A stretch of DNA of 64,000 nucleotides from Desulfobacterales bacterium. Its GTDB lineage: Bacteria > Desulfobacterota > Desulfobacteria > Desulfobacterales > G020354645. Below the pieces are notes generated by a model. The model saw only the letters and a list, made by a program, of their open reading frames with translations, had not been told where the DNA came from and searched no databases. Both the position numbers and the translations under genes were made by a program. The stretch covers positions 4 through 64,003 of the forward strand of contig JASFTQ010000001.1 in assembly GCA_050053515.1 (NCBI GenBank), read 5' to 3'. Shown piece by piece: positions 1 through 11,886 of this stretch. Every line of letters starts with the position of its first letter. Positions within the stretch are counted from its first letter, which is position 1.

Positions 1-432
1 AAAGATATCAATGGTTTCCCCAAATGCGAACATTCCCAGCCCGAGCCCGACCACGAAAAAGAGCCCGTCCAGCTTTAGAGTCGACATTGACACCAGCGCC
101 GTACCGGGGCAATATCCGCCGACTACAAAACCAAAACCAAAAATAAATCCGCCGACAAGACCCGGCCACAAATAGGTAGTATTGATGTAAAGCCGGCTGT
201 AATTTAAAATGCCGAGGGCGTTGCACCAAAAAATGAGTAACATGGCGGTTACAATTGCAGTGAACATAACTTTTAGTACCCTCATATCCTTTAGGTAGAA
301 CTGGGCGGCCAGATTGCGGGAGTCACCGAAACCTGCGCGTTCCAGTGCAAACCCGAACCCGATACCGGTGATAAGGTAGAAAAAGTTCTGCCAAATGTGG
401 CCAAGGGATGCATTGATATCGAATGGCGCCAT
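1..432 (-). CDS. YeeE/YedE-family (DUF395, sulfur-compound transport) half-size membrane protein; the 3' end lies outside the window
   Basis: It is absent from the ORF track because it runs off the window edge. My translation of the minus strand from ATG 432-430 gives MAPFDINASLGHIWQNFFYLITGIGFGFALERAGFGDSRNLAAQFYLKDMRVLKVMFTAIVTAMLLIFWCNALGILNYSRLYINTTYLWPGLVGGFIFGFGFVVGGYCPGTALVSMSTLKLDGLFFVVGLGLGMFAFGETIDIF, and the frame stays open to position 1. The protein is hydrophobic and carries the GGYCPG cysteine motif typical of this family. It starts 11 nt downstream of the first YeeE/YedE gene. Confidence 0.7.
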   Translation of the reverse strand, partial: MAPFDINASLGHIWQNFFYLITGIGFGFALERAGFGDSRNLAAQFYLKDMRVLKVMFTAIVTAMLLIFWCNALGILNYSRLYINTTYLWPGLVGGFIFGFGFVVGGYCPGTALVSMSTLKLDGLFFVVGLGLGMFAFGETIDIF

Positions 433-443
433 GGTTTGTCACC

Positions 444-962
444 TCAATTCCATAGTTTTTTAACAAAATAAGCAAGCAAATATGCTCCGGCAAAAACTGA
501 AAACATGAAGGCCCAACTGCCTGCCGCTAGAACCGCTCCGCCAGATAATGCCTGACTGGACGTGCACCCGCGGGCGATCCGGACACCATACCCCGCAAGC
601 CCACCACCAATAATGGCAGCGACCCAACGGGAGCGGTCACTGATATGCGGTCCCTTGAGGGTTTCAACTCCGATCCGACCGGCGAGAAGGCCGGACAGGA
701 ATCCTCCCATCATGATTCCGACGATTTCATAAACCAACCAATCGTCCAGAGGATGATCGCTGTCGCGCAACAGGCCGACCAGGTAAGCATTTCGATCCGT
801 ATGACTTGGATAAAGGGTATCTGTTAAAGCGCCGGTAACCTTGGCGATGCCGCCGGACGCCCCCAAACCGTGTCCGAATAAAACATAGGATATAAAAAGG
901 ATCACACCGAGCAGTATGCCGGCAACATACGGGTTCAGGTAAGATATCCGTTTGTTATTCAT
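444..962 (-). CDS. YeeE/YedE-family (DUF395) half-size membrane protein
   Basis: 172 aa with multiple hydrophobic segments and the conserved cysteine motif RIARGCTSSQALSGG. Its start overlaps the stop of the upstream cytochrome b gene as ATGA (959-962). Confidence 0.75.
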   Translation of the reverse strand: MNNKRISYLNPYVAGILLGVILFISYVLFGHGLGASGGIAKVTGALTDTLYPSHTDRNAYLVGLLRDSDHPLDDWLVYEIVGIMMGGFLSGLLAGRIGVETLKGPHISDRSRWVAAIIGGGLAGYGVRIARGCTSSQALSGGAVLAAGSWAFMFSVFAGAYLLAYFVKKLWN

Positions 963-1600
963 CTGATTTGTTCCTTTTTGCTGTTTTCTTCTATGAATTC
1001 ATAACCAGTAATCATGGAGACGATGCTTGACAATGGTGCGTGCCCGGTTGTGGTCATGTAAACATGCCCGATGACAAACGCTAAAAACAGCCAGGCGCCA
1101 AAACGATGAATCGGTCCCAGTATGCTGAGGCCGCCGAACATTTCGGCGTAAACCGGCGTAAATTTCATGCTCCATTTAAGCAGGCCGGTTATAACCATAA
1201 GGGGTAACAATCCATTGAGGACCATAAAGTAGGCAATTTTTTGTAGAGGAAGCAAGCGCTTGGCCGGTGTCTTATCGAACGGATGGGGGTCTCCCTTGAA
1301 GATGCCGTATAAGTAATAGCTGACATGCGTGAATCCCAGTGTAAAAAAATCCTCAATCCCCGGAATATAGCGCTTCAACAGTCCGCCGGCCGCATTGTAA
1401 AATAGGGCAAGAAAGGCATTCAGCATCACAATGATACCAATGGTGTTGTGCAGGGACACGGCGGCTTTAAATTCAATAAATGCAAACGGGCCGGAAAAAC
1501 TAATCATAAACCCGGTAAGCAATAGCATCGCTACGCCGACTGCCTGAACCCAGTGCCAAATGCGTTCATAAACCGAGTAAAAATACACTTTTTTCTTCAT
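959..1600 (-). CDS. membrane cytochrome b (cytochrome b561 / Ni-Fe-hydrogenase b-subunit-like family)
   Basis: 213 aa. The N-terminal YERIWHWVQAVGVAMLLLTG block is typical of this family, and there are four hydrophobic helices carrying His residues. It begins 6 nt after the heptaheme gene. Confidence 0.7.
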   Translation of the reverse strand: MKKKVYFYSVYERIWHWVQAVGVAMLLLTGFMISFSGPFAFIEFKAAVSLHNTIGIIVMLNAFLALFYNAAGGLLKRYIPGIEDFFTLGFTHVSYYLYGIFKGDPHPFDKTPAKRLLPLQKIAYFMVLNGLLPLMVITGLLKWSMKFTPVYAEMFGGLSILGPIHRFGAWLFLAFVIGHVYMTTTGHAPLSSIVSMITGYEFIEENSKKEQIR

Positions 1601-1606
1601 TAGCGT

Positions 1607-3739
1607 TTACCCTTCGGTTCGTTTTCTCACGGCCAAGATCCTCAAAGCGCCGTGTGCAATCACACCCATAATGGCACCGATTACAATGGCGATTCCGATC
1701 ATGTCGATCCACAGAGGACGAAGAGTTCCGTGTATATAAACCTCACCGGGATCAATGGCGGGCTTGAAAACGAGACCGCCAACTTGTGTTATTTGAACTG
1801 TTCCCAGCATTTTGGTATGTGAGTCCTTTACCGGCTCGGGGATAATACCGCCGGGAACATACGCGGCCAACTCGACTTCTTGATTGATCCTAGAATTTTC
1901 ACTGTGACACACCTGGCAATCCCTTAAGGCAAAATTGCCTCCGACAACGCTATGGCTGTGGGTGTAAGGCTGTATTTCGCCTTTTATTTGTGGGTTGTCG
2001 AATCCCAACTTTTTTAGTTTGGCAACAATCAGCATTACTTTTTTTTCCGTATCCAGTCTTAGCTCGTGGGACGACAGATCGCCGCTACGATTCTCGTCCA
2101 GCGCAATAACAATTTCCGGGTGATACTCTCCTTTTTCTGTTAAGAATGCCATCTTTAAGTCCGCCAGTCGCAATGGACGTTCCGGGTTTCCTGCCACCCA
2201 GAACCACGAAGTGATGAAATTATTTGGACCCAATCGATATTTTCCATCCAATTCCTCATGAAGCAGCAATGTCGGATAATATCCGTCAATGATAGAGGTC
2301 GGATCATTAATTTTTCCCTGTACACCTCTATGATCTACTGCGGGGCTACCGTCCGGATAGATAACCGTCCAGTCGGTGATTTTGCGGGCCGGTGAATAAA
2401 TTTTGGGGATATGACAGGTCTGACAACTCAACTTTTCAAAATGCACTGATTTATAGGGTAAAAAAACATGGGTTGCCTCGGCATTGTGACAATCGCGGCA
2501 ATCTCTCATACTGCCATCCAGTCTTCGGGCCACCGTCCCTTGAGCAGTGTGGCCTTTGACCAAATTGTGGTCCGGTTTCTTAAGATAGTCGTTGTTACTG
2601 AGTCTGCGAGAGTCAAATCGTAAATGGCGCGGTTTTGATTCTGCCAGCTCCTTTTCATTGTATTGGGGATTGTTCATGGCATAATGGCAGTTGACACATC
2701 CAAGCAGCCGCTCCGCATGCACATCCCAGGGCCGCGACAGAGATGATTTATCCTTAAGATTCATTCCGGATGTGAAAATTTTTGCCGGTGAAAATATTTC
2801 TCCTGTGGTTTCAGCAGCCCAATTTTCAAGGGAATTTTCGAATATTACAGGATCTGGACAACGGCAGGTTTTTGCGTGACATAACCGGCAATTGGCGCTT
2901 TTTGGGTCAGATATCATTAACATTTCCGAAGGTATTGATCCGTCAGGTTGAAACTTTTTTTCCAACCATATATAGCCCGTTAAAGCCGGTTTGACGAGTC
3001 CGGTTCCCACCAATGTGGCTGTTGAGGCCCACCGGAATTGTCCCTTTTTTATCTCTTCAATTCGTGCAGCGTTATTCGGATTATTCATATGACATATCAA
3101 GCAGTTTAGCTCCAGGATGCCACTTGCTTTCCAATTCCACTTGCGGGGATTTCCGGAAACCGGATCAACAACATGCGTCTCAGGATCGACAGAGTCGGAG
3201 GCTACCAGATCGGTGAGGCGTTTTTCGGAATAACGGCTGAATTCAGCGGGTCCGCTACCGACGTGCCGAGGTCCCATGGTCATGATCCATTCGGCTGTGC
3301 CCATGTCCAGCTGATTATTCCCCCTGGATGACAAGACCCGATAGGTCAGCGAACTCCACCGACCAAACATTCCCGGGCCAGTGTCCCAAGCTCTTTGACT
3401 TGGTCCTTTACCGGGTTGGTGCATTTCGTCCAAACCGACCTGGGCATGGTAATTGTTTTGAGCGATATAAGTTGTATCATGACAACCGCCGCAAGTTCTC
3501 ATAAGAGACAGGGGAGCCCCGGATTTCAGGACGTTTTTACCGTCCTGGTCGAGCAAGCGGAGGGAGGGATGAATTCGTTTCGTTGCTGCTTCAGGGATGG
3601 GTTTTAGCTGTTTGAGGGTCAGCGGGGGAAATTCCGACTCAGCCGGGGATCTATCCGAAGCTGATGATGGAGATATGCTCAGGACTCCAAAAAACAGCAA
3701 CGTTGAAAAAACCCTCAGTGGTATTTTCGGAATATACAT
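1607..3739 (-). CDS. periplasmic heptaheme c-type cytochrome with a C-terminal membrane anchor
   Basis: 710 aa with a signal-like N-terminus. It has seven CXXCH motifs (CGGCH, CLICH, CRLCH, CVNCH, CRDCH, CQTCH, CQVCH) and a C-terminal hydrophobic helix IGIAIVIGAIMGVIAHGAL followed by a basic tail. Its ATG overlaps the otr stop as TAATG at 3737-3741. Confidence 0.8.
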   Translation of the reverse strand: MYIPKIPLRVFSTLLFFGVLSISPSSASDRSPAESEFPPLTLKQLKPIPEAATKRIHPSLRLLDQDGKNVLKSGAPLSLMRTCGGCHDTTYIAQNNYHAQVGLDEMHQPGKGPSQRAWDTGPGMFGRWSSLTYRVLSSRGNNQLDMGTAEWIMTMGPRHVGSGPAEFSRYSEKRLTDLVASDSVDPETHVVDPVSGNPRKWNWKASGILELNCLICHMNNPNNAARIEEIKKGQFRWASTATLVGTGLVKPALTGYIWLEKKFQPDGSIPSEMLMISDPKSANCRLCHAKTCRCPDPVIFENSLENWAAETTGEIFSPAKIFTSGMNLKDKSSLSRPWDVHAERLLGCVNCHYAMNNPQYNEKELAESKPRHLRFDSRRLSNNDYLKKPDHNLVKGHTAQGTVARRLDGSMRDCRDCHNAEATHVFLPYKSVHFEKLSCQTCHIPKIYSPARKITDWTVIYPDGSPAVDHRGVQGKINDPTSIIDGYYPTLLLHEELDGKYRLGPNNFITSWFWVAGNPERPLRLADLKMAFLTEKGEYHPEIVIALDENRSGDLSSHELRLDTEKKVMLIVAKLKKLGFDNPQIKGEIQPYTHSHSVVGGNFALRDCQVCHSENSRINQEVELAAYVPGGIIPEPVKDSHTKMLGTVQITQVGGLVFKPAIDPGEVYIHGTLRPLWIDMIGIAIVIGAIMGVIAHGALRILAVRKRTEG

Positions 3740-5220
3740 TAATCCCTCCAGGGGCCTGATGCGATCACCCTTTTGTAACTTCTACCACCGGCCAAGGCAG
3801 GATCAGCAGAATAGCCCAGTTTCCGCCAATTTAAACGGCCATTTTCACCGTGGCAGTCGGTACATTGCAGCGCATACTCCTTGGGTGTTACCATATGGCT
3901 TAGTACCCAGAACATGCGGGTTTCGGCAAATCCCAGTTTCCCGCTGAAAGCCAGTCCACTGTATTTGCTGCCCAGCTTTACGGCCTTTTGCCAATCAAAT
4001 TCAGTCCAATACCCCCCTTCTCCAACAGTTTTAGGAACCAGCAGGTATCGATGTTTGATATCATAGGGCTGCTTGGCGTGATGGATCTTAAACGGCCAGA
4101 TTAATGCGAGCGGGTCGTTAATACGGCCCATGGGAAAATTAATGTTCGTTACCTGTTGCGGATCAATCATATCACCCTTGATGTAGCGTGCGGAGTCACC
4201 ATTGAACCAATAATATTCAGGGATAAGCTCTCTGGCATATAAAAAGCTTCCCTTGATTTTAAGATATTTATGCGGATCGCTGGCTTTTATGTTCTTTCCC
4301 GCCGTCGACCAGTCCCATGCAATTTTAGTTGGTTCCTTGGTGGCAACTACAGGGATATGACATGTCTGGCAGGCCACAGAGGTTAAGTGTTGATTGAGGC
4401 GGTCCGATAGGTGGGGTGGAGTCGAGTGACAGTCAGTACACTTAACACCAATAGTATTCCTGGCGCTGACGGATATAATTCCTCCCGATATTTTATGATT
4501 GCGGGTGCGATGGCAGTCAATACACTGAAAATTGTGTTTTCCCATGTGGACATCGATCCGTTCCACCGGTTTGGCCAATGACCCGTCCAGATCTCCGTGT
4601 TTGACCGCATTGCCCCCGCCACCGTTAAAATGGCACCAGCCGCAGTTGTCACGTGTCGGTCTCCCCACACTTTTAGCTGCTGCCAGCAAATCGACACCGT
4701 CAGCGGGCAGGCCGTTAATGGTTTTGGAATACCCGCCTGAATGGTCGTGGCAGACTAGACAGTCGACATTTTTCTGATCTGTGAAATCAAAATTTTGGTC
4801 TTTCCAGCCGTACCCCGCATGACAGGTTGTGCATTTGGGCCAGTTACCTTCAATGCTGATGCAAAAATTGTTTATCAGGTTTCGTTTGCCGATTCGCAGA
4901 GGTTTTTTATGTCCAGAAACAACGACTTCCTCACCAAGCCAGGTCCAATGGGATGTTTGCATCACTTCTTTTGCGGCATTTGGATGGCAGTTTAAGCAAG
5001 CTTTCGTCACTGACGGACCATCCGAGAAGGACTGAGCTTTGAAAAGATAATCATGTGGTGTTGGGGCTGGTTTTTTTGCAACTTTGTGCCAGGGGTTGAA
5101 CGAGCGTGTATTTTTGCTTTTTTTTGTATCGAGGAGCAACAGGCTGGGTACGAACACAATGAGAATAGCAAAAATAAGAGAAAAAATTGTACGCAACCTT
5201 CCAACCATAATTTCACCCAT
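3739..5220 (-). CDS. otr: octaheme c-type cytochrome, tetrathionate reductase (Otr) family
   Basis: 493 aa with an N-terminal hydrophobic anchor or signal and eight CXXCH motifs. The blocks HWTW, INNFCI, CTTCHAGYGW, VDCLVCHD, CGWCHFNGGGG..VKHGDLD, VACQTCHIP, PEYYWFNG, IWPFK...QPYD and HMVTPKEYALQCTDCH match my recollection of Shewanella Otr-type octahemes. Confidence 0.8.
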   Translation of the reverse strand: MGEIMVGRLRTIFSLIFAILIVFVPSLLLLDTKKSKNTRSFNPWHKVAKKPAPTPHDYLFKAQSFSDGPSVTKACLNCHPNAAKEVMQTSHWTWLGEEVVVSGHKKPLRIGKRNLINNFCISIEGNWPKCTTCHAGYGWKDQNFDFTDQKNVDCLVCHDHSGGYSKTINGLPADGVDLLAAAKSVGRPTRDNCGWCHFNGGGGNAVKHGDLDGSLAKPVERIDVHMGKHNFQCIDCHRTRNHKISGGIISVSARNTIGVKCTDCHSTPPHLSDRLNQHLTSVACQTCHIPVVATKEPTKIAWDWSTAGKNIKASDPHKYLKIKGSFLYARELIPEYYWFNGDSARYIKGDMIDPQQVTNINFPMGRINDPLALIWPFKIHHAKQPYDIKHRYLLVPKTVGEGGYWTEFDWQKAVKLGSKYSGLAFSGKLGFAETRMFWVLSHMVTPKEYALQCTDCHGENGRLNWRKLGYSADPALAGGRSYKRVIASGPWRD

Positions 5221-5363
5221 TCAGTAGTTAGATTGCCCTGTCAACCTCCCATAGCTTTTGGTATATAAATCGCTTACACTCTGATTTTATGGGGAATGAG
5301 TTCAAAATTTGGTGGCAAAAATAGACCCCTGGACAATTGATAAAACTTTTAGCGCATATTTAT

Positions 5364-7823
5364 TTACTTGCCTTCTTTTTTCTTTTTTTCTTCTTCGGCT
5401 TCACCGCCGAATTTTTTGATTTTCTCGGCAAGATCTTTGAGTTTTTGATCGACGAGAAAATTGATGGTTCCTTCAGGATACGCAGCATTCGGTCCCTTTT
5501 CACCCGCTGGTTGGCCGGTTAAGATCTCAATGCCTTCATCGATGGTTCCGACGGAATGAATATGGAATTTGCCGTCTTGAACGGCTTTGACAACATCCTT
5601 GCGCAGCATCAGATCTTTGACATTGCTGGCCGGGATCATTACGCCCTGGTTCCCGGTCAGCTCCTTTTGCCGGCAGCAATCAAAAAAACCTTCGATTTTC
5701 TGGTTGACACCGCCGATGGCCTGAATCTCTCCTTTCTGATTGACCGAGCCGGTTACGGCAATGTTTTGTTTGATCGGAATTCCCGAAAGGCTGGACAGCA
5801 GGGCATAGATTTCGGTAGAAGAAGCGCTGTCGCCGTCAACCCCGCTGTAGGACTGTTCAAAAGCAATGCTGGCGCTCATGGTCAGCGGTTTTTCTTGTGC
5901 GTATTTGTGGCGCAGATACCCGCCCAGGATCAAAACACCTTTGTTGTGCGTGTTGCCGGACATGTCGGCTTCGCGTTCGATGTTGATCACCCCGGCCCGC
6001 CCCATGGACGTTGAAGCCGTGATGCGGGAGGGTTTGCCGAACATGTAATCCCCCAGTGAATAGACCGCCAATCCGTTGACCTGCCCGACGACCTCACCGT
6101 CCCTGTCGATCATCAGGGTGCCGCGATCGATCATTTCCTGAATATGCTGTTCGACTAAATTCGAGCGGTAAATTTTGGATTCGATGGCCTTGTCCACGTG
6201 TTTTTCCTGGACCACTGCTGCGTTTTCCTCACCCGCCCAGAAATCGGCCTCTCGAATAAAATCGGTGATGGTCGGAAAGCTGGTGGAGATTTTTTCCTGC
6301 CGGCCGGTCATGCGGACGGCCTGTTCCACCAGGGCAGCTAGTGCAGTTCGATCAAATGCTTTTAAGGTTTCCTCGTCGCAGACCATCTTGACGAATTCCG
6401 CGAATTGCATAATGCTTTGTTCGTTTTTATCCATGGCTGTATCAAAGTCCGCCCGGACTTTAAAAATTTTTTTGACGTCTTCATCGTAATACAGCAGCAG
6501 ATGATACAAGTAGGCATCGGCCACGACAACCACCTTGGTATCCAGTTCGATGGGCTCTGGTTTTAACCCCGTGGTGGTGAAAAAATAAAAGGGATCATAC
6601 GTTTGAATCTCCAGTTTTTTGCTCTTGAGCGCCCGCTTCAACGCCGACCACACGCCGGGCTCTATGATAGCGTCCCGTAGATTGAGCACCAGGAAACCAC
6701 CGTTGGCCTGGATGAGAGAACCGACCTTAATCTTGCTGAAGTCCGTACGCCATACACCTTTGCGATCGACAATCCGCTCAATGCTGCCGAATATGTTGCG
6801 ATACGTGGGATAATCTTCTACCATCACCGGCGGACTTTTGCGACCGCTGTTGTCCACTATAAGATTGACCTCATAAGGCTGGAAAGCATTGGTATCCGGC
6901 ATTAACTGGGGCAGCCCCGGGATCTGTGGTTCCCCTTGAGGGCTGAAAATACTGAGATTGTCGGCCATATCTTCGAGCATATTTTGCAGGTATCTTTTGA
7001 TGATATCGTATTTGTATTGTTCGATGATCGGGGTGGCCATTTCGAAGGCGGTTTTCAAAAAGGTGGCCCGATCCATTTTTTCCATTTTTTGCGTTACATC
7101 TTTCTGCAGATCCCTGAGTTCCAGAAAGATCTGATCGATCTGGGTTTTTAGCGTTGCGTGCTTTTGCTTTAGCTGTTCATATTCCTCCTTGGGAAACCGG
7201 CCTTTTTCCACCAGGGACTCAAGCTGCTCGATTGGAACCGGTTTGCCGTCCACCAGAGGCATAACCGCCGGTCGCTTGAATTGACCGATCTGTACATCCA
7301 CAATGGTAAATCCTTCCTCTTTGACTTTCTGATCCAGAGCTTTGAAAAAGCTGCTGGCCTTTTGCTCATAGGCCTCCGTGATCTCTTTTTTCATATTGAT
7401 GTATTCCTGGCTTTCAAAAAGCTGGGGTATCTCTTTTTTGAGGGTATCCACCAGGTTCTTGACATCTTTTTTAAACGCAGCGCCGCTGCCGCCGGAAAGC
7501 CGGATTAAAATAGGACTTTCCGGATCTTTGAAATTATTGACGTAGCAAAGGTCATCGGGCACCCTGTCTTTTTTCGACATTTCTTCGAGCAATTTTTTGA
7601 CGGTCGCCATTCTGCCCGAACCGGCCATTCCGGTCACAAATACGTTGTAACCCGGTTTATCGATATTGATACCAAAACGAAAAGCCGCCACGCCTCTTTC
7701 TTGTCCGATGATTTTTTTCAGCGGTTGGAGATCTTGGGTGCTTTCAAAAGGAAGAGAGGCGGAATCGAGTCGCCATCTTAGTTTTTCCACCGGCACCTGT
7801 GCGGATGAATTAACTTGGGGCAT
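5364..7823 (-). CDS. Lon-like protease: degenerate AAA (AAA_32-type) domain plus a Lon S16 C-terminal proteolytic domain
   Basis: 819 aa. The P-loop-like motif VTGMAGSGRMAT has Arg (AGA) where the Walker A Lys is expected. The C-terminal Lon-type catalytic region is GVDGDSASSTEIYALLSSL ... IGGVNQKIEGFF. The gene lies 32 nt downstream of hsp20. Confidence 0.8.
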   Translation of the reverse strand: MPQVNSSAQVPVEKLRWRLDSASLPFESTQDLQPLKKIIGQERGVAAFRFGINIDKPGYNVFVTGMAGSGRMATVKKLLEEMSKKDRVPDDLCYVNNFKDPESPILIRLSGGSGAAFKKDVKNLVDTLKKEIPQLFESQEYINMKKEITEAYEQKASSFFKALDQKVKEEGFTIVDVQIGQFKRPAVMPLVDGKPVPIEQLESLVEKGRFPKEEYEQLKQKHATLKTQIDQIFLELRDLQKDVTQKMEKMDRATFLKTAFEMATPIIEQYKYDIIKRYLQNMLEDMADNLSIFSPQGEPQIPGLPQLMPDTNAFQPYEVNLIVDNSGRKSPPVMVEDYPTYRNIFGSIERIVDRKGVWRTDFSKIKVGSLIQANGGFLVLNLRDAIIEPGVWSALKRALKSKKLEIQTYDPFYFFTTTGLKPEPIELDTKVVVVADAYLYHLLLYYDEDVKKIFKVRADFDTAMDKNEQSIMQFAEFVKMVCDEETLKAFDRTALAALVEQAVRMTGRQEKISTSFPTITDFIREADFWAGEENAAVVQEKHVDKAIESKIYRSNLVEQHIQEMIDRGTLMIDRDGEVVGQVNGLAVYSLGDYMFGKPSRITASTSMGRAGVINIEREADMSGNTHNKGVLILGGYLRHKYAQEKPLTMSASIAFEQSYSGVDGDSASSTEIYALLSSLSGIPIKQNIAVTGSVNQKGEIQAIGGVNQKIEGFFDCCRQKELTGNQGVMIPASNVKDLMLRKDVVKAVQDGKFHIHSVGTIDEGIEILTGQPAGEKGPNAAYPEGTINFLVDQKLKDLAEKIKKFGGEAEEEKKKKEGK

Positions 7824-7855: not shown

Positions 7856-8302
7856 TCATTTGACTGTAATGGTAATTCCGCGTGCTTCCCTGGGCTTGCA
7901 CTTCGGCAACACAATTTTCAAGGTGTCTTCCTCGTAAGTGGCTGTAACCTCATCGGTCAGTACCCGGCAAGGAAGGGTTATGGATCTGGCAAAAGAGCGC
8001 GAACTCGTCTGGATCCGCTGGTAATCTTGCCCCTTCTCGGTGGTTTTTTCGCTGATTTCTCCTTTGAAGGTCAAGGTGTCTTCGGTGACTGAGATCTGAA
8101 TATCCTCCGGTTGTAACCCCGGAAGCTTTGCCCTGATGGTCAGGGTTTCCTCCGTTTCGGAAAGATCCATGGTGAAGAATTCCGCCGCTCCCACCAAGCT
8201 GCGGGGCAAGCCAAAATCCCTGCGAAATCTTCTGAAAAGCTGCTCCAGCTCTTCCCGCATTTTATCGATTTCTTGCTTTTTCCATAAGATTAACTCGGCC
8301 AT
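7856..8302 (-). CDS. Hsp20/alpha-crystallin family small heat-shock protein
   Basis: 148 aa. The alpha-crystallin domain pattern is present (LTIRAKLPGLQPEDIQISVTEDTLTFKGE ... RSITLP ... ATYEEDTLKIVLPK). Confidence 0.9.
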   Translation of the reverse strand: MAELILWKKQEIDKMREELEQLFRRFRRDFGLPRSLVGAAEFFTMDLSETEETLTIRAKLPGLQPEDIQISVTEDTLTFKGEISEKTTEKGQDYQRIQTSSRSFARSITLPCRVLTDEVTATYEEDTLKIVLPKCKPREARGITITVK

Positions 8303-10500: not shown

Positions 10501-11886
10501 ATGGAACACTATGATTTCATTGTTATCGGAAGCGGCCCCGCCGGTCAGAAGGGGTCCATCCAGGCTGCCAAACTGGGGAAAAAGGTAGCCATTATCGAAC
10601 GCAGGGCTGTGGTGGGGGGGGTGTCGGTCCACACCGGAACAATTCCAAGCAAGACATTGCGTGAAGCCGTGCTATATTTAACCGGCTGGGATCAGCGCGG
10701 TCTCTATGGTTACGGCTATCGCCTGAAGCCCAGGGTTTCGATTGAGGACCTCATGCAGCGGATACAAATCACCCTGCAGCACGAAATTGAAGTCATCCAG
10801 AATCAGCTCATACGAAACGGAGTGACTGTAATCGAGGGCTTAGCGTCTTTTGAAGACCCGCATTGTATTCGGGTGACGCTACCCAATAAGAAACCGGCGG
10901 TGTTTGAAGCAGAAAAAATTTTAATCAGCACCGGCACCCAACCGATGCGGCTCAAAAGGATTCCCTATGATGATGAGCGCATTATTGACAGCGACGGCCT
11001 TTTACGGCTCGAAGAAATTCCCAACTCCATGATCGTTGTGGGCGGTGGGGTCATTGGTGTCGAATATGCCTCCATTTTCAGCGTTTTGGACATCGAGGTC
11101 ACCGTGGTGGATGGGCGCACAACATTGTTGGAATTTCTGGATCGTGAAATCGTGGATGAGTTTATACATGAAATGCGGAATCGGGGGATCATTCTCAGGC
11201 TGGGGGAACGATTGGACAGGGTTGAAAAAAACACCAAAGGGCAAGTCGTCGCCATACTGGAAAGCGGCAAGAGGCTGCGAGCAGACCTCGTGTTGATTGC
11301 AGCCGGTCGTGTCGGAAACACACGAAGTCTCAAACTTAAAAATTGCGGTCTAGCTGCCGATGAACGTCACCGTATTAAAGTCAATAAAAACTATCAGACC
11401 GAATTACCCCACATTTACGCGGCGGGGGATGTGATCGGCTTCCCGAGTCTGGCATCAACCGCCATGGAGCAGGGACGATTGGCTGCTTGCCACGCCTTCA
11501 ATATCCCGGCGACGAGCCGGTCCGCTAATTTTCCGTTTGGCATTTATGGGATACCGGAGATGAGCATGGTGGGGGCAACCGAACAAGATCTCACAGAGAA
11601 AAAAATACCTTACGAGGTTGGAGTTGCCCGCCTCAGGGAAACAGCCCGCGGCCAGATCATGGGTCTCGAGGGGGGGTTGCTCAAAATGCTGATCGGTTTG
11701 GAGGACAGAAAAATCTTGGGGGCCCATATTATTGGAGAAGGTGCCGCCGAACTGATTCACATCGGCCAGGCCTCATTGGTTCTCGGGGGAACTTTAGATT
11801 ACTACCTGGAAAACGTATTCAATTATCCGACTTTGGCCGAAGCATACAAGATCGCTGCTTTGGATGCATGGAATCGGCTTTCCTGA
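10501..11886 (+). CDS. sthA: soluble pyridine nucleotide transhydrogenase (Si-specific NAD(P)+ transhydrogenase)
   Basis: 461 aa and collinear with E. coli SthA as I recall it. Matching blocks are DFIVIGSGPAG, GGVSVHTGTIPSKTLREAV (no CxxxxC disulfide), GDVIGFPSLAS, GIYGIPEMSMVG, VPYEVG and FNYPTLAEAYKIAALD. Confidence 0.85.
   Translation: MEHYDFIVIGSGPAGQKGSIQAAKLGKKVAIIERRAVVGGVSVHTGTIPSKTLREAVLYLTGWDQRGLYGYGYRLKPRVSIEDLMQRIQITLQHEIEVIQNQLIRNGVTVIEGLASFEDPHCIRVTLPNKKPAVFEAEKILISTGTQPMRLKRIPYDDERIIDSDGLLRLEEIPNSMIVVGGGVIGVEYASIFSVLDIEVTVVDGRTTLLEFLDREIVDEFIHEMRNRGIILRLGERLDRVEKNTKGQVVAILESGKRLRADLVLIAAGRVGNTRSLKLKNCGLAADERHRIKVNKNYQTELPHIYAAGDVIGFPSLASTAMEQGRLAACHAFNIPATSRSANFPFGIYGIPEMSMVGATEQDLTEKKIPYEVGVARLRETARGQIMGLEGGLLKMLIGLEDRKILGAHIIGEGAAELIHIGQASLVLGGTLDYYLENVFNYPTLAEAYKIAALDAWNRLS

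Follow-up and report, generated by a model that had tools for sequence, protein, structure and literature searches.

In the first 5220 nucleotides of the window, the 64,000-nucleotide stretch of Desulfobacterales DNA that we analyzed, lie five genes of a six-gene unit that sets an Otr-family octaheme cytochrome c, a heptaheme cytochrome c and a cytochrome b beside a split YeeE/YedE-type channel and a rhodanese-like protein with a predicted C-terminal Cys arm. The same six functions stand together in relatives from at least 10 phyla. From sequence, synteny and gene fusions we see about an even chance that the unit encodes a periplasmic reductase that draws its electrons from quinol, acts on tetrathionate or carrier-bound thiosulfonate and hands thiosulfate-level sulfur to the channel.

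A conserved six-gene unit

The five genes in the window (g1-g5) are tightly coupled and co-directional, and are listed here in reading order, preceded by the upstream region.

5221-5363, minus strand: intergenic region 5′ of g1, presumed promoter region (143 nt, the sole sizeable gap in the region)
3739-5220, minus strand: g1, Otr-family octaheme cytochrome c (493 amino acids, eight CXXCH motifs)
1607-3739, minus strand: g2, heptaheme cytochrome c (710 amino acids, seven CXXCH motifs, N-terminal signal peptide, C-terminal hydrophobic helix)
959-1600, minus strand: g3, dihaem cytochrome b of the FdnI/HyaC/PhsC type (213 amino acids, no Cys)
444-962, minus strand: g4, half-size YeeE/YedE protein (172 amino acids, single Cys in an RGCTS motif)
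1-432, minus strand: g5, half-size YeeE/YedE protein with a GGYCPG motif (start at 432, runs off the start of the window)

The genes are joined by a TAATG overlap at 3741-3737 (g1/g2), a 6-nt gap at 1601-1606 (g2/g3), an ATGA overlap at 962-959 (g3/g4) and an 11-nt gap at 433-443 (g4/g5). The window holds 144 of the 202 codons of g5, whose full length was read from an identical 10.3-kb metagenome contig of the Joint Genome Institute (JGI). On that contig a sixth gene follows, encoding a 213-residue rhodanese-domain (PF00581) protein whose start overlaps the g5 stop; after a further 185-nt gap come unrelated RND/ABC genes. Promoter and terminator scans of positions 1-5600 stayed at chance level, with nothing above chance in a simple sigma-70 scan, and an Rfam scan of the window found no RNA family.

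A preliminary description of this DNA, made from its letters and open reading frames, had reported five co-directional genes with these junctions and motifs, all of which we found at the same positions on the minus strand. It had called the first product an eight-CXXCH member of the Otr family, the second a seven-CXXCH cytochrome with a C-terminal transmembrane (TM) anchor, the third a b-type cytochrome and the last two half-size YeeE/YedE proteins with one Cys motif each, and had proposed hidden Markov model searches to check this. Each assignment was borne out, the motifs and the anchor being present and the matches to TIGR04315 (g1), PF01292 (g3) and PF04143 (g4 and g5) exceeding their cut-offs, as detailed below. 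Its count of five genes holds for the window and has to be extended by the rhodanese-like gene, g5 being cut by the window edge. The preliminary description also lacked two observations made here, namely that the heptaheme is an apparent Otr paralogue and that the studied Otr has no such operon around it.

Relatives of the unit were sought with the heptaheme, its most specific probe. A single-protein search of genome contigs with g2 gave no relatives, and an alignment-based search was needed, which found members of the g2 family in 369 species-level genomes of the genome collection; in metagenomes the homologues number in the hundreds (281 clusters at 50% identity with E < 1e-30, among 1.84 billion representatives). 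For synteny scoring, the best 80 loci per scan, out of the 369 genome matches, were fetched, open reading frames were called in them and searched with the window proteins, and only loci with enough flanking sequence were eligible. A first seeding gave the order Otr, heptaheme, cytochrome b, YeeE-half A, YeeE-half B and rhodanese on one strand in 52 of 54 eligible loci, and in an independent second seeding all six functions lay on one strand in every eligible locus (63/63). With a few contigs shared by the two seedings, the six-gene arrangement was present in 115 of 117 eligible loci overall, which is far beyond chance. The linkage of YeeE/YedE genes to the cytochrome genes, which the preliminary description had named beforehand as its test, was thus seen in virtually all the related genomes that we examined. 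Of the two exceptions, one, a Latescibacterota chromosome (L044), was rejected as a real break in synteny: a run of N at ~11700-11800, either a masked stretch or a scaffold gap, directly follows its cytochrome b gene and sits exactly where the channel and carrier genes are missing.

The hosts of the unit (at least 10 phyla) include Desulfobacterota, Myxococcota, Chloroflexota (mostly Anaerolineae), Actinomycetota, Planctomycetota and Acidobacteriota, and further Calditrichota, KSB1, Zixibacteria, Eisenbacteria and one bin labelled as an archaeon. All recovered unit loci come from metagenome-assembled genomes (MAGs), none being labelled a cultured strain; a search for a cultivated carrier that started from a Calditrichia homologue did not recover Caldithrix abyssi and again matched only MAGs. 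The heptaheme of the window is nearest to those of Desulfobacterota bins (60-66% identity).

Several neighbors in the unit occur elsewhere as single proteins. The heptaheme and cytochrome b form one protein of ~916 residues in most non-proteobacterial lineages, for example Chloroflexota and Actinomycetota, and YeeE-half B and the rhodanese form one of ~410 residues in most phyla, with thousands of examples in metagenomes. A clean Otr-heptaheme fusion of 1123 residues with 15 CXXCH motifs (P0038) was seen once. Because these are Rosetta-stone fusions of neighbors and the window genes appear translationally coupled, a physical complex is the most economical reading of the unit; likewise, the overlapping stops and starts, together with the fusions in other lineages, make co-transcription of the window genes very likely.

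Extra copies of single components accompany the unit in a few places. A second, longer Otr-like gene lies beside it at L154 8740-11055 (plus strand) and at L032 938-3220, tandem Otr genes occur in a Desulfuromonadales bin (L146 7100-8551), and a second pair of YeeE halves with a long fusion was found at L063 15750-18351.

Predicted roles of the six proteins

The residues on which the following assignments turn are encoded at these positions of the window.

4885-4887, minus strand: codon of the active-site Lys112 of g1, from the alignment with Lys56 of 1SP3
4861-4863, minus strand: codon of g1 Cys120, from the alignment with Cys64 of 1SP3
1613-1714, minus strand: C-terminal TM helix of g2 (residues ~676-709, hydrophobic)
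1652-1654, minus strand: codon of the invariant His696 of g2
1553-1555, minus strand: codon of g3 His16, the first of four haem-ligand His for two haems b
1448-1450, minus strand: codon of g3 His51, second haem-ligand His
1106-1108, minus strand: codon of g3 His165, third haem-ligand His
1064-1066, minus strand: codon of g3 His179, fourth haem-ligand His
564-566, minus strand: codon of g4 Cys133 in RGCTS, equivalent to the periplasm-side essential Cys293 of S. thermophila YeeE
109-111, minus strand: codon of g5 Cys108 in GGYCPG, equivalent to the essential Cys91 of S. thermophila YeeE

Otr has been characterized as a reductase, but what it does physiologically has been unclear since 2004, and the enzyme has been studied only from Shewanella. 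g1 scored 565.1 bits on TIGR04315 (cut-off 375) over profile positions 8-440 of 440, carries standard CXXCH motifs only (residues 75, 130, 154, 193, 233, 261, 284 and 453), and matched the S. oneidensis OTR structure 1SP3 over its full length (E 1e-140, roughly 50-57% identical). The haem-2 ligand Lys56 of 1SP3 and the neighboring Cys64 correspond to Lys112 and Cys120 of g1, in the aligned segments GKKNSINNFC and GKRNLINNFC. A neighbor-joining tree of 157 Otr sequences split cleanly into 78 operon-type and 79 stand-alone members, with g1 among the former and the characterized Shewanella Otr in the separate clade. The equivalents of Lys56 and Cys64 are invariant in all 78 operon-type sequences, and the stand-alone sequences keep Cys64 in 79/79 and Lys56 in 78/79 cases; since this Lys/Cys site is conserved across both clades, the chemistry is probably the same in the two. 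Although g1 and the Shewanella enzyme are alike in their eight CXXCH motifs, their haem-2 Lys and the nearby Cys, their settings differ. In Shewanella and Ferrimonas (~60 genomes) otr stands alone, with no heptaheme, cytochrome b, YeeE or rhodanese gene within 9 kb, and the Shewanella protein has a cleavable signal peptide and is soluble, whereas operon-type Otr is held by an uncleaved N-terminal helix or a lipobox. g1 has such an N-terminal hydrophobic helix and is predicted to be the membrane-tethered catalytic subunit.

Two further bins show a stand-alone-clade Otr gene followed by a cytochrome b gene only (L160 8782-11148, Desulfatibacillum; L161 6317-9492, Bacteroidales), with no heptaheme, channel or carrier gene after the Otr. 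From their sequences, these pairs may represent a simpler quinol-linked variant of Otr.

For the heptaheme, no sequence homologue was found in the PDB. Its AlphaFold2 model (predicted local distance difference test score, pLDDT, 88.5) gave 1SP3 as the sole significant match in a Foldseek search against the PDB (E 3e-6), and hhalign aligned residues 269-620 of g2 with residues 178-465 of Otr (probability 97.5%, E 7.6e-12), placing five haem motifs, those of haems 4-8, in register. The N-terminal 268 residues had no alignment to Otr and contain two haems, versus three in the Otr catalytic module. Because it scores 25 bits on TIGR04315, below the cut-off of 375, and has this two-haem module in place of the catalytic one, g2 appears, from sequence and model, to be a remote, degenerate Otr paralogue without the catalytic module and not an Otr. 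Its most likely role is that of an electron conduit from cytochrome b to Otr. A second catalytic subunit is disfavored by the sequence, since the Lys/Cys module of Otr is absent and there are enough conserved His residues for bis-His ligation of all seven haems. Within the C-terminal TM helix, His696 and Arg700 are invariant across 119 homologues, which is unexpected for a plain anchor; this pair might ligate or contact a haem b of the cytochrome b partner, or contact its quinone site. Among the remote members of the heptaheme family (P0307 onward), many align only from ~residue 205, their first haem module being lost or replaced, and the family may contain further architectural variants.

Octaheme relatives such as MccA catalyze the six-electron reduction of sulfite, and an MccA-like enzyme could convert sulfite, or an S-sulfonate bound to the carrier arm, to sulfide or persulfide, with the channel moving sulfite or sulfane; the fifteen haems would give electron storage and the arm could hold intermediates. 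g1, however, is an Otr by its full-length match to 1SP3 with the Lys/Cys site, and its exclusively standard CXXCH motifs, together with the lack of any match to Mcc-type partners, leave six-electron chemistry the least probable of the functions that we considered.

g3 matched PF01292 with 95.8 bits (cut-off 30.1, E 3e-27). Its best NCBIfam match was the PhsC model NF011582 (110.7 bits, below the cut-off of 204), by which it is related to PhsC without being PhsC itself. The four haem-ligand His residues, one in TM1, one in TM2 and two in TM4, are kept in 97-100% of 66 homologues, and we propose g3 as the quinol/quinone site. The C-terminal helix of g2 combined with a four-helix cytochrome b recalls FdnGHI (the FdnH/FdnI anchor), the Hya hydrogenase (its small subunit with cytochrome b) and PhsABC, in which a periplasmic subunit with a C-terminal helix likewise meets a PF01292 dihaem cytochrome b with four His ligands. 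In those systems, however, the electron-transfer subunit contains Fe-S clusters and the catalytic subunit is Mo- or Ni-based, whereas here an Otr-derived heptaheme cytochrome c and a haem-based catalytic subunit would take their places.

The two half-size proteins divide the PF04143 profile between them: g4 matched positions 176-310 (70.7 bits, E 2e-19) and g5 positions 7-105 (45.7 bits, E 8e-12; cut-off 27). In the structure of YeeE, two inverted halves are joined by helix H7 in an N-out, C-in topology, with the essential Cys91 on the inner and Cys293 on the outer side (PMC7449682). By sequence, g4 corresponds to the C-terminal half (PmpA-like) and g5 to the N-terminal half plus H7 (PmpB-like), and the predicted charge distribution in the two proteins agrees with the published topology. 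Together they are predicted to rebuild a thiosulfate-type YeeE channel with both essential cysteines, much as PmpA and PmpB, which likewise correspond to the C- and N-terminal halves of YeeE and keep the same two residues, have been proposed to form such a channel as a heterodimer (PMC11582611). An equivalent of Cys22 is absent from the pair; this residue is dispensable in StYeeE (PMC7449682). The g4 gene was present in all complete loci. On the transporter models NF041049 and NF052577 (TsuA/YeeE) and NF033796 and TIGR04112 (YedE, selenium), the best scores of g4 and g5 were 17-42 bits against cut-offs of 200-645, and since all lie below their cut-offs, the transported species cannot be read from these equivalog models. 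As in YeeE(TsuA)/YeeD(TsuB), a small partner protein with a Cys goes with the channel and is in some cases fused to it. YeeD, however, is a TusA-fold protein at the cytoplasmic face, whereas the partner here has a rhodanese fold, a predicted position at the outer face and its Cys on a C-terminal tail, and the whole is embedded in a respiratory cytochrome operon.

That partner, the sixth protein, belongs to PF00581 (cut-off 22.2), on which two relatives scored 40.9 (P0241) and 47.5 bits (P0122). Across the relatives the rhodanese active-site loop reads SNDE, or [VM]SN[DG]E.., and the catalytic Cys of the C-X5-R motif is absent, suggesting that the protein is not a sulfurtransferase in the classical sense. 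After a Lys-rich tail, it ends instead in an arm of the form G[GS]CG-stop in 58 of 59 separate and all 120 fused homologues; in most separate proteins the arm Cys, the penultimate residue, is the only one. Since the separate protein starts with a signal-anchor helix, and in the channel-carrier fusions the rhodanese domain is preceded by a highly basic linker, GGKDPKKAPKARY, and an additional TM helix, this domain should face the periplasm, as Otr does.

In four Anaerolineae loci with a YeeE-rhodanese fusion, TGC-GGN-stop at the arm is replaced by TGA-GGC/AGC-stop, followed 13-14 nt downstream by a conserved GC-rich hairpin, GCCGC(A)G-UU(U)-GCGGC, with a G-U-containing loop. The contigs of the last three loci recur in our set as L205, L188 and L189, respectively.

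L056 13484-13520: TGA codon and hairpin
L066 13488-13525: TGA codon and hairpin
L077 13558-13595: TGA codon and hairpin
L078 13540-13577: TGA codon and hairpin

L066 also has a separate terminator-like element further downstream. An Rfam scan of two of these loci found no selenocysteine insertion sequence (SECIS) family, only weak terminator-like matches further downstream. On this sequence evidence the fusion is probably a new selenoprotein ending in G-G-U-G, in which selenocysteine (Sec) replaces Cys, and the alternation of Cys and Sec (UGA) at this position suggests that the arm residue is chemically or redox active. A selenoproteome review lists Otr, YeeE and several rhodanese forms, and a C-terminal GGUG arm is not on its list (PMC13188914).

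These features invite a selenium- or tellurium-based reading, in which Otr reduces selenite, the arm carries selenium as a selenotrisulfide or perselenide and a YedE-like channel imports it. YedE-like proteins have been implicated in selenium transport (PMC11582611), g4 and g5 match NF033796 (42 bits) and TIGR04112 (26 bits) weakly, and some loci themselves are predicted to use Sec. We nevertheless give this reading little credence, as those scores are far under the cut-offs of 350 and 200, a catalytic Sec is uninformative about the substrate, a quinol-linked complex with 15 haems is disproportionate to a trace element, and no selD or yedF partner was found in the flanks.

Two known carriers offer parallels for a sulfur-binding protein of this kind. 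The Sud polysulfide-sulfur transferase of Wolinella, which works with polysulfide reductase, is also a periplasmic rhodanese-fold protein that presents bound sulfur to a quinol-linked reductase; Sud is soluble and has the canonical active-site Cys, whereas in the sixth protein this Cys is lost and the only one sits in the C-terminal tail. SoxY likewise holds its sulfur-binding Cys on a Gly-rich C-terminal swinging arm (reviewed in PMC11237559), and in SoxYZ/SoxAX, too, a c-type or multihaem cytochrome partner performs two-electron S-S chemistry on thiosulfate-level sulfur. The scaffold of SoxY, however, is a β-sandwich and not a rhodanese domain, the cytochrome here is unrelated to SoxA, the likely direction here is reductive, and no SoxZ-like gene recurred in the flanks of the unit. 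By this analogy, the sixth protein may work like SoxY but is not SoxY.

Proposed mechanism and competing readings

The preliminary description had seen in these genes a quinol-linked periplasmic redox module for a sulfur oxyanion, tied to a sulfur-compound channel. That remains the best reading, with the substrate and the direction of electron flow being what we infer beyond the anatomy. In the proposed reductase, menaquinol would be oxidized at cytochrome b and the electrons would pass through the seven haems of the heptaheme and then the eight of Otr to its active site, where an S-S-bonded sulfur oxyanion would be reduced. This could be free tetrathionate or a Cys-S-thiosulfonate formed as the arm thiolate or selenolate attacks tetrathionate. 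The thiosulfate-level product would then be released, or handed by the arm to the outer mouth of the channel at the Cys293-type residue, and taken into the cytoplasm through the channel; alternatively, the arm could pass the S-thiosulfonate itself to the outer Cys. The operon type would then relate to stand-alone Otr as SoxAX-SoxY does to its carrier-free relative TsdA, the two-electron S-S chemistry being the same and one partner thiol coming from a carrier protein.

The tetrathionate/thiosulfate couple lies at ~+200 mV and menaquinone at ~-75 mV, and these established potentials favor the reductive direction with menaquinone. They also bear on the possibility, which we consider unlikely, that the same complex runs oxidatively, with thiosulfate or exported sulfane loaded onto the arm Cys, oxidized or conjugated by Otr in the way that SoxAX acts on SoxY, and the electrons delivered by way of the heptaheme and cytochrome b to the quinone pool. 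Such a couple cannot reduce menaquinone, which the host phyla Chloroflexota, Desulfobacterota and Actinomycetota use, and Otr is known as a reductase. FdnI-type cytochromes b, on the other hand, normally reduce quinone, and SQR-like genes lie near some of the loci. The G-G-C-G arm resembles the swinging arm of SoxY in the oxidative pathway, and a divergent soxY is found next to otr in lucinid symbionts (PMC11237559), but no SoxB-, SoxCD- or SoxZ-like partner was detected in the flanks of the unit.

Within the reductive scheme we tentatively consider, at clearly lower confidence than for the scheme as a whole, that operon-type Otr acts on a protein-bound sulfur adduct and not on the free anion, the arm of the membrane-tethered carrier shuttling the thiosulfonate or sulfane group between the active site of Otr and the outer mouth of the channel. 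Protein Cys residues are known to react with tetrathionate to give Cys-S-thiosulfonate, which can be transferred from protein to protein and whose reductive release needs two electrons (PMC4175335). If true, redox chemistry in the periplasm and the passage of sulfur across the membrane would form a single process with covalent channelling. This would be the reductive counterpart, driven by quinol, of the Sox carrier system, and would be widespread in uncultivated anaerobes of at least 10 phyla.

Several points weigh against a tetrathionate or thiosulfonate reductase. Carriers that bind their load covalently on a Cys arm are familiar mainly from oxidative pathways (SoxY), and the anatomy therefore does not fix the direction of electrons. 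The operon type is known from genes alone, every recovered locus being from a MAG. The AlphaFold2 model of a YeeE-half/rhodanese fusion was poor (pLDDT 60), so the outward orientation of the carrier is predicted from charge distribution and the published YeeE topology, and the arm of the window's own sixth gene is deduced from relatives whose heptahemes are ~60% identical to that of the window. On the supporting side, otr transcripts of an acidobacterial MAG rose 36-fold with tetrathionate (10.1101/2020.10.01.322446); the otr concerned (Candidatus Sulfomarinibacter), which we traced with the published quantitative PCR primer to L170, is divergent (197 bits) and has too little downstream sequence, and hence does not vouch for the operon type.

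Finally, Shewanella Otr also reduces nitrite and hydroxylamine in vitro and its physiological substrate is unsettled, according to a passage in PMC11237559 that cites Atkinson 2007, and several genome papers invoke Otr for nitrite reduction. The unit could accordingly be a quinol-linked nitrite or hydroxylamine reductase, ammonifying or detoxifying, to which the channel and carrier are unrelated or accessory. We regard this as improbable: in 115 of 117 loci the genes for the YeeE halves and the carrier run co-linearly with those for the cytochromes, they are translationally coupled and they are spread over at least 10 phyla, no nitrogen-metabolism gene recurs in the flanks, and the extra genes that do recur are sulfur-related.

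Flanking genes and wider meaning

Immediately upstream of otr, and on its strand, 11 Chloroflexota loci have an ArsR-family regulator gene, whose product contains a conserved Cys within LHAxxCSALADP and might repress the unit in response to sulfur. Besides the seven positions listed, it occurs in L048, L053, L055 and L068.

L019 6941-7306, same strand as otr: ArsR-family regulator (PF01022)
L021 7094-7459, same strand as otr: ArsR-family regulator (PF01022)
L022 7013-7402, same strand as otr: ArsR-family regulator (PF01022)
L025 3120-3524, same strand as otr: ArsR-family regulator (PF01022)
L029 6949-7335, same strand as otr: ArsR-family regulator (PF01022)
L031 7022-7399, same strand as otr: ArsR-family regulator (PF01022)
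L037 7027-7431, same strand as otr: ArsR-family regulator (PF01022)

Near the unit, some Chloroflexota loci also have a group of accessory genes, for an FAD-dependent oxidoreductase resembling sulfide:quinone oxidoreductase (SQR) with a DUF1641 protein, for another ArsR regulator and for a secreted protein whose four rhodanese domains keep their Cys. The positions of this group are as follows.

L014 14140-16053: accessory genes of this group
L022 4069-5986: accessory genes of this group
L031 3716-4948: accessory genes of this group
L037 3844-5805: accessory genes of this group
L019, L020 and L023 ~2400-4300, minus strand: accessory genes of this group

None of these ArsR, SQR-like or four-domain rhodanese neighbors accompanies the unit of the window. 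Upstream of it, on the same strand and separated by the 143-nt gap, lie genes for an 819-residue Lon-related protease homologue (5364-7823, minus strand; a weak LonB match, scoring 133 bits where the cut-off is 517) and a small heat-shock protein of the Hsp20 family (7856-8302, minus strand), a neighborhood that is not kept in relatives. NCBIfam searches of ten further window genes returned housekeeping and transport functions only, and no other sulfur genes nearby.

The preliminary description knew of no report of the unit, and we likewise found no account of the six genes in the searchable full-text literature, the papers found there treating otr as a single marker gene or mentioning it in passing; metagenome surveys, for instance, use it as a single-gene marker for "tetrathionate reduction" (e.g. 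PMC9040765). While the parts belong to known families, their assembly, which combines an operon-type Otr clade, an Otr-derived heptaheme, a cytochrome b anchor, a split YeeE channel and a Cys/Sec arm on a dead rhodanese, appears to be undescribed.

The common environmental form of Otr would be a different machine from the one studied, bound to the membrane, linked to quinol and tied directly to a sulfur channel and a Cys/Sec arm. With the unit come a new scaffold for a carrier arm and a probable new selenoprotein. Common in anoxic environments, the unit argues for sulfur over nitrogen chemistry of Otr in these lineages. It also suggests an unrecognized link between the periplasmic turnover of sulfur intermediates and cytoplasmic sulfur metabolism in Anaerolineae, Desulfobacterota, Myxococcota, Planctomycetota, Actinomycetota and others, and gives a first testable idea of what Otr may do in nature.

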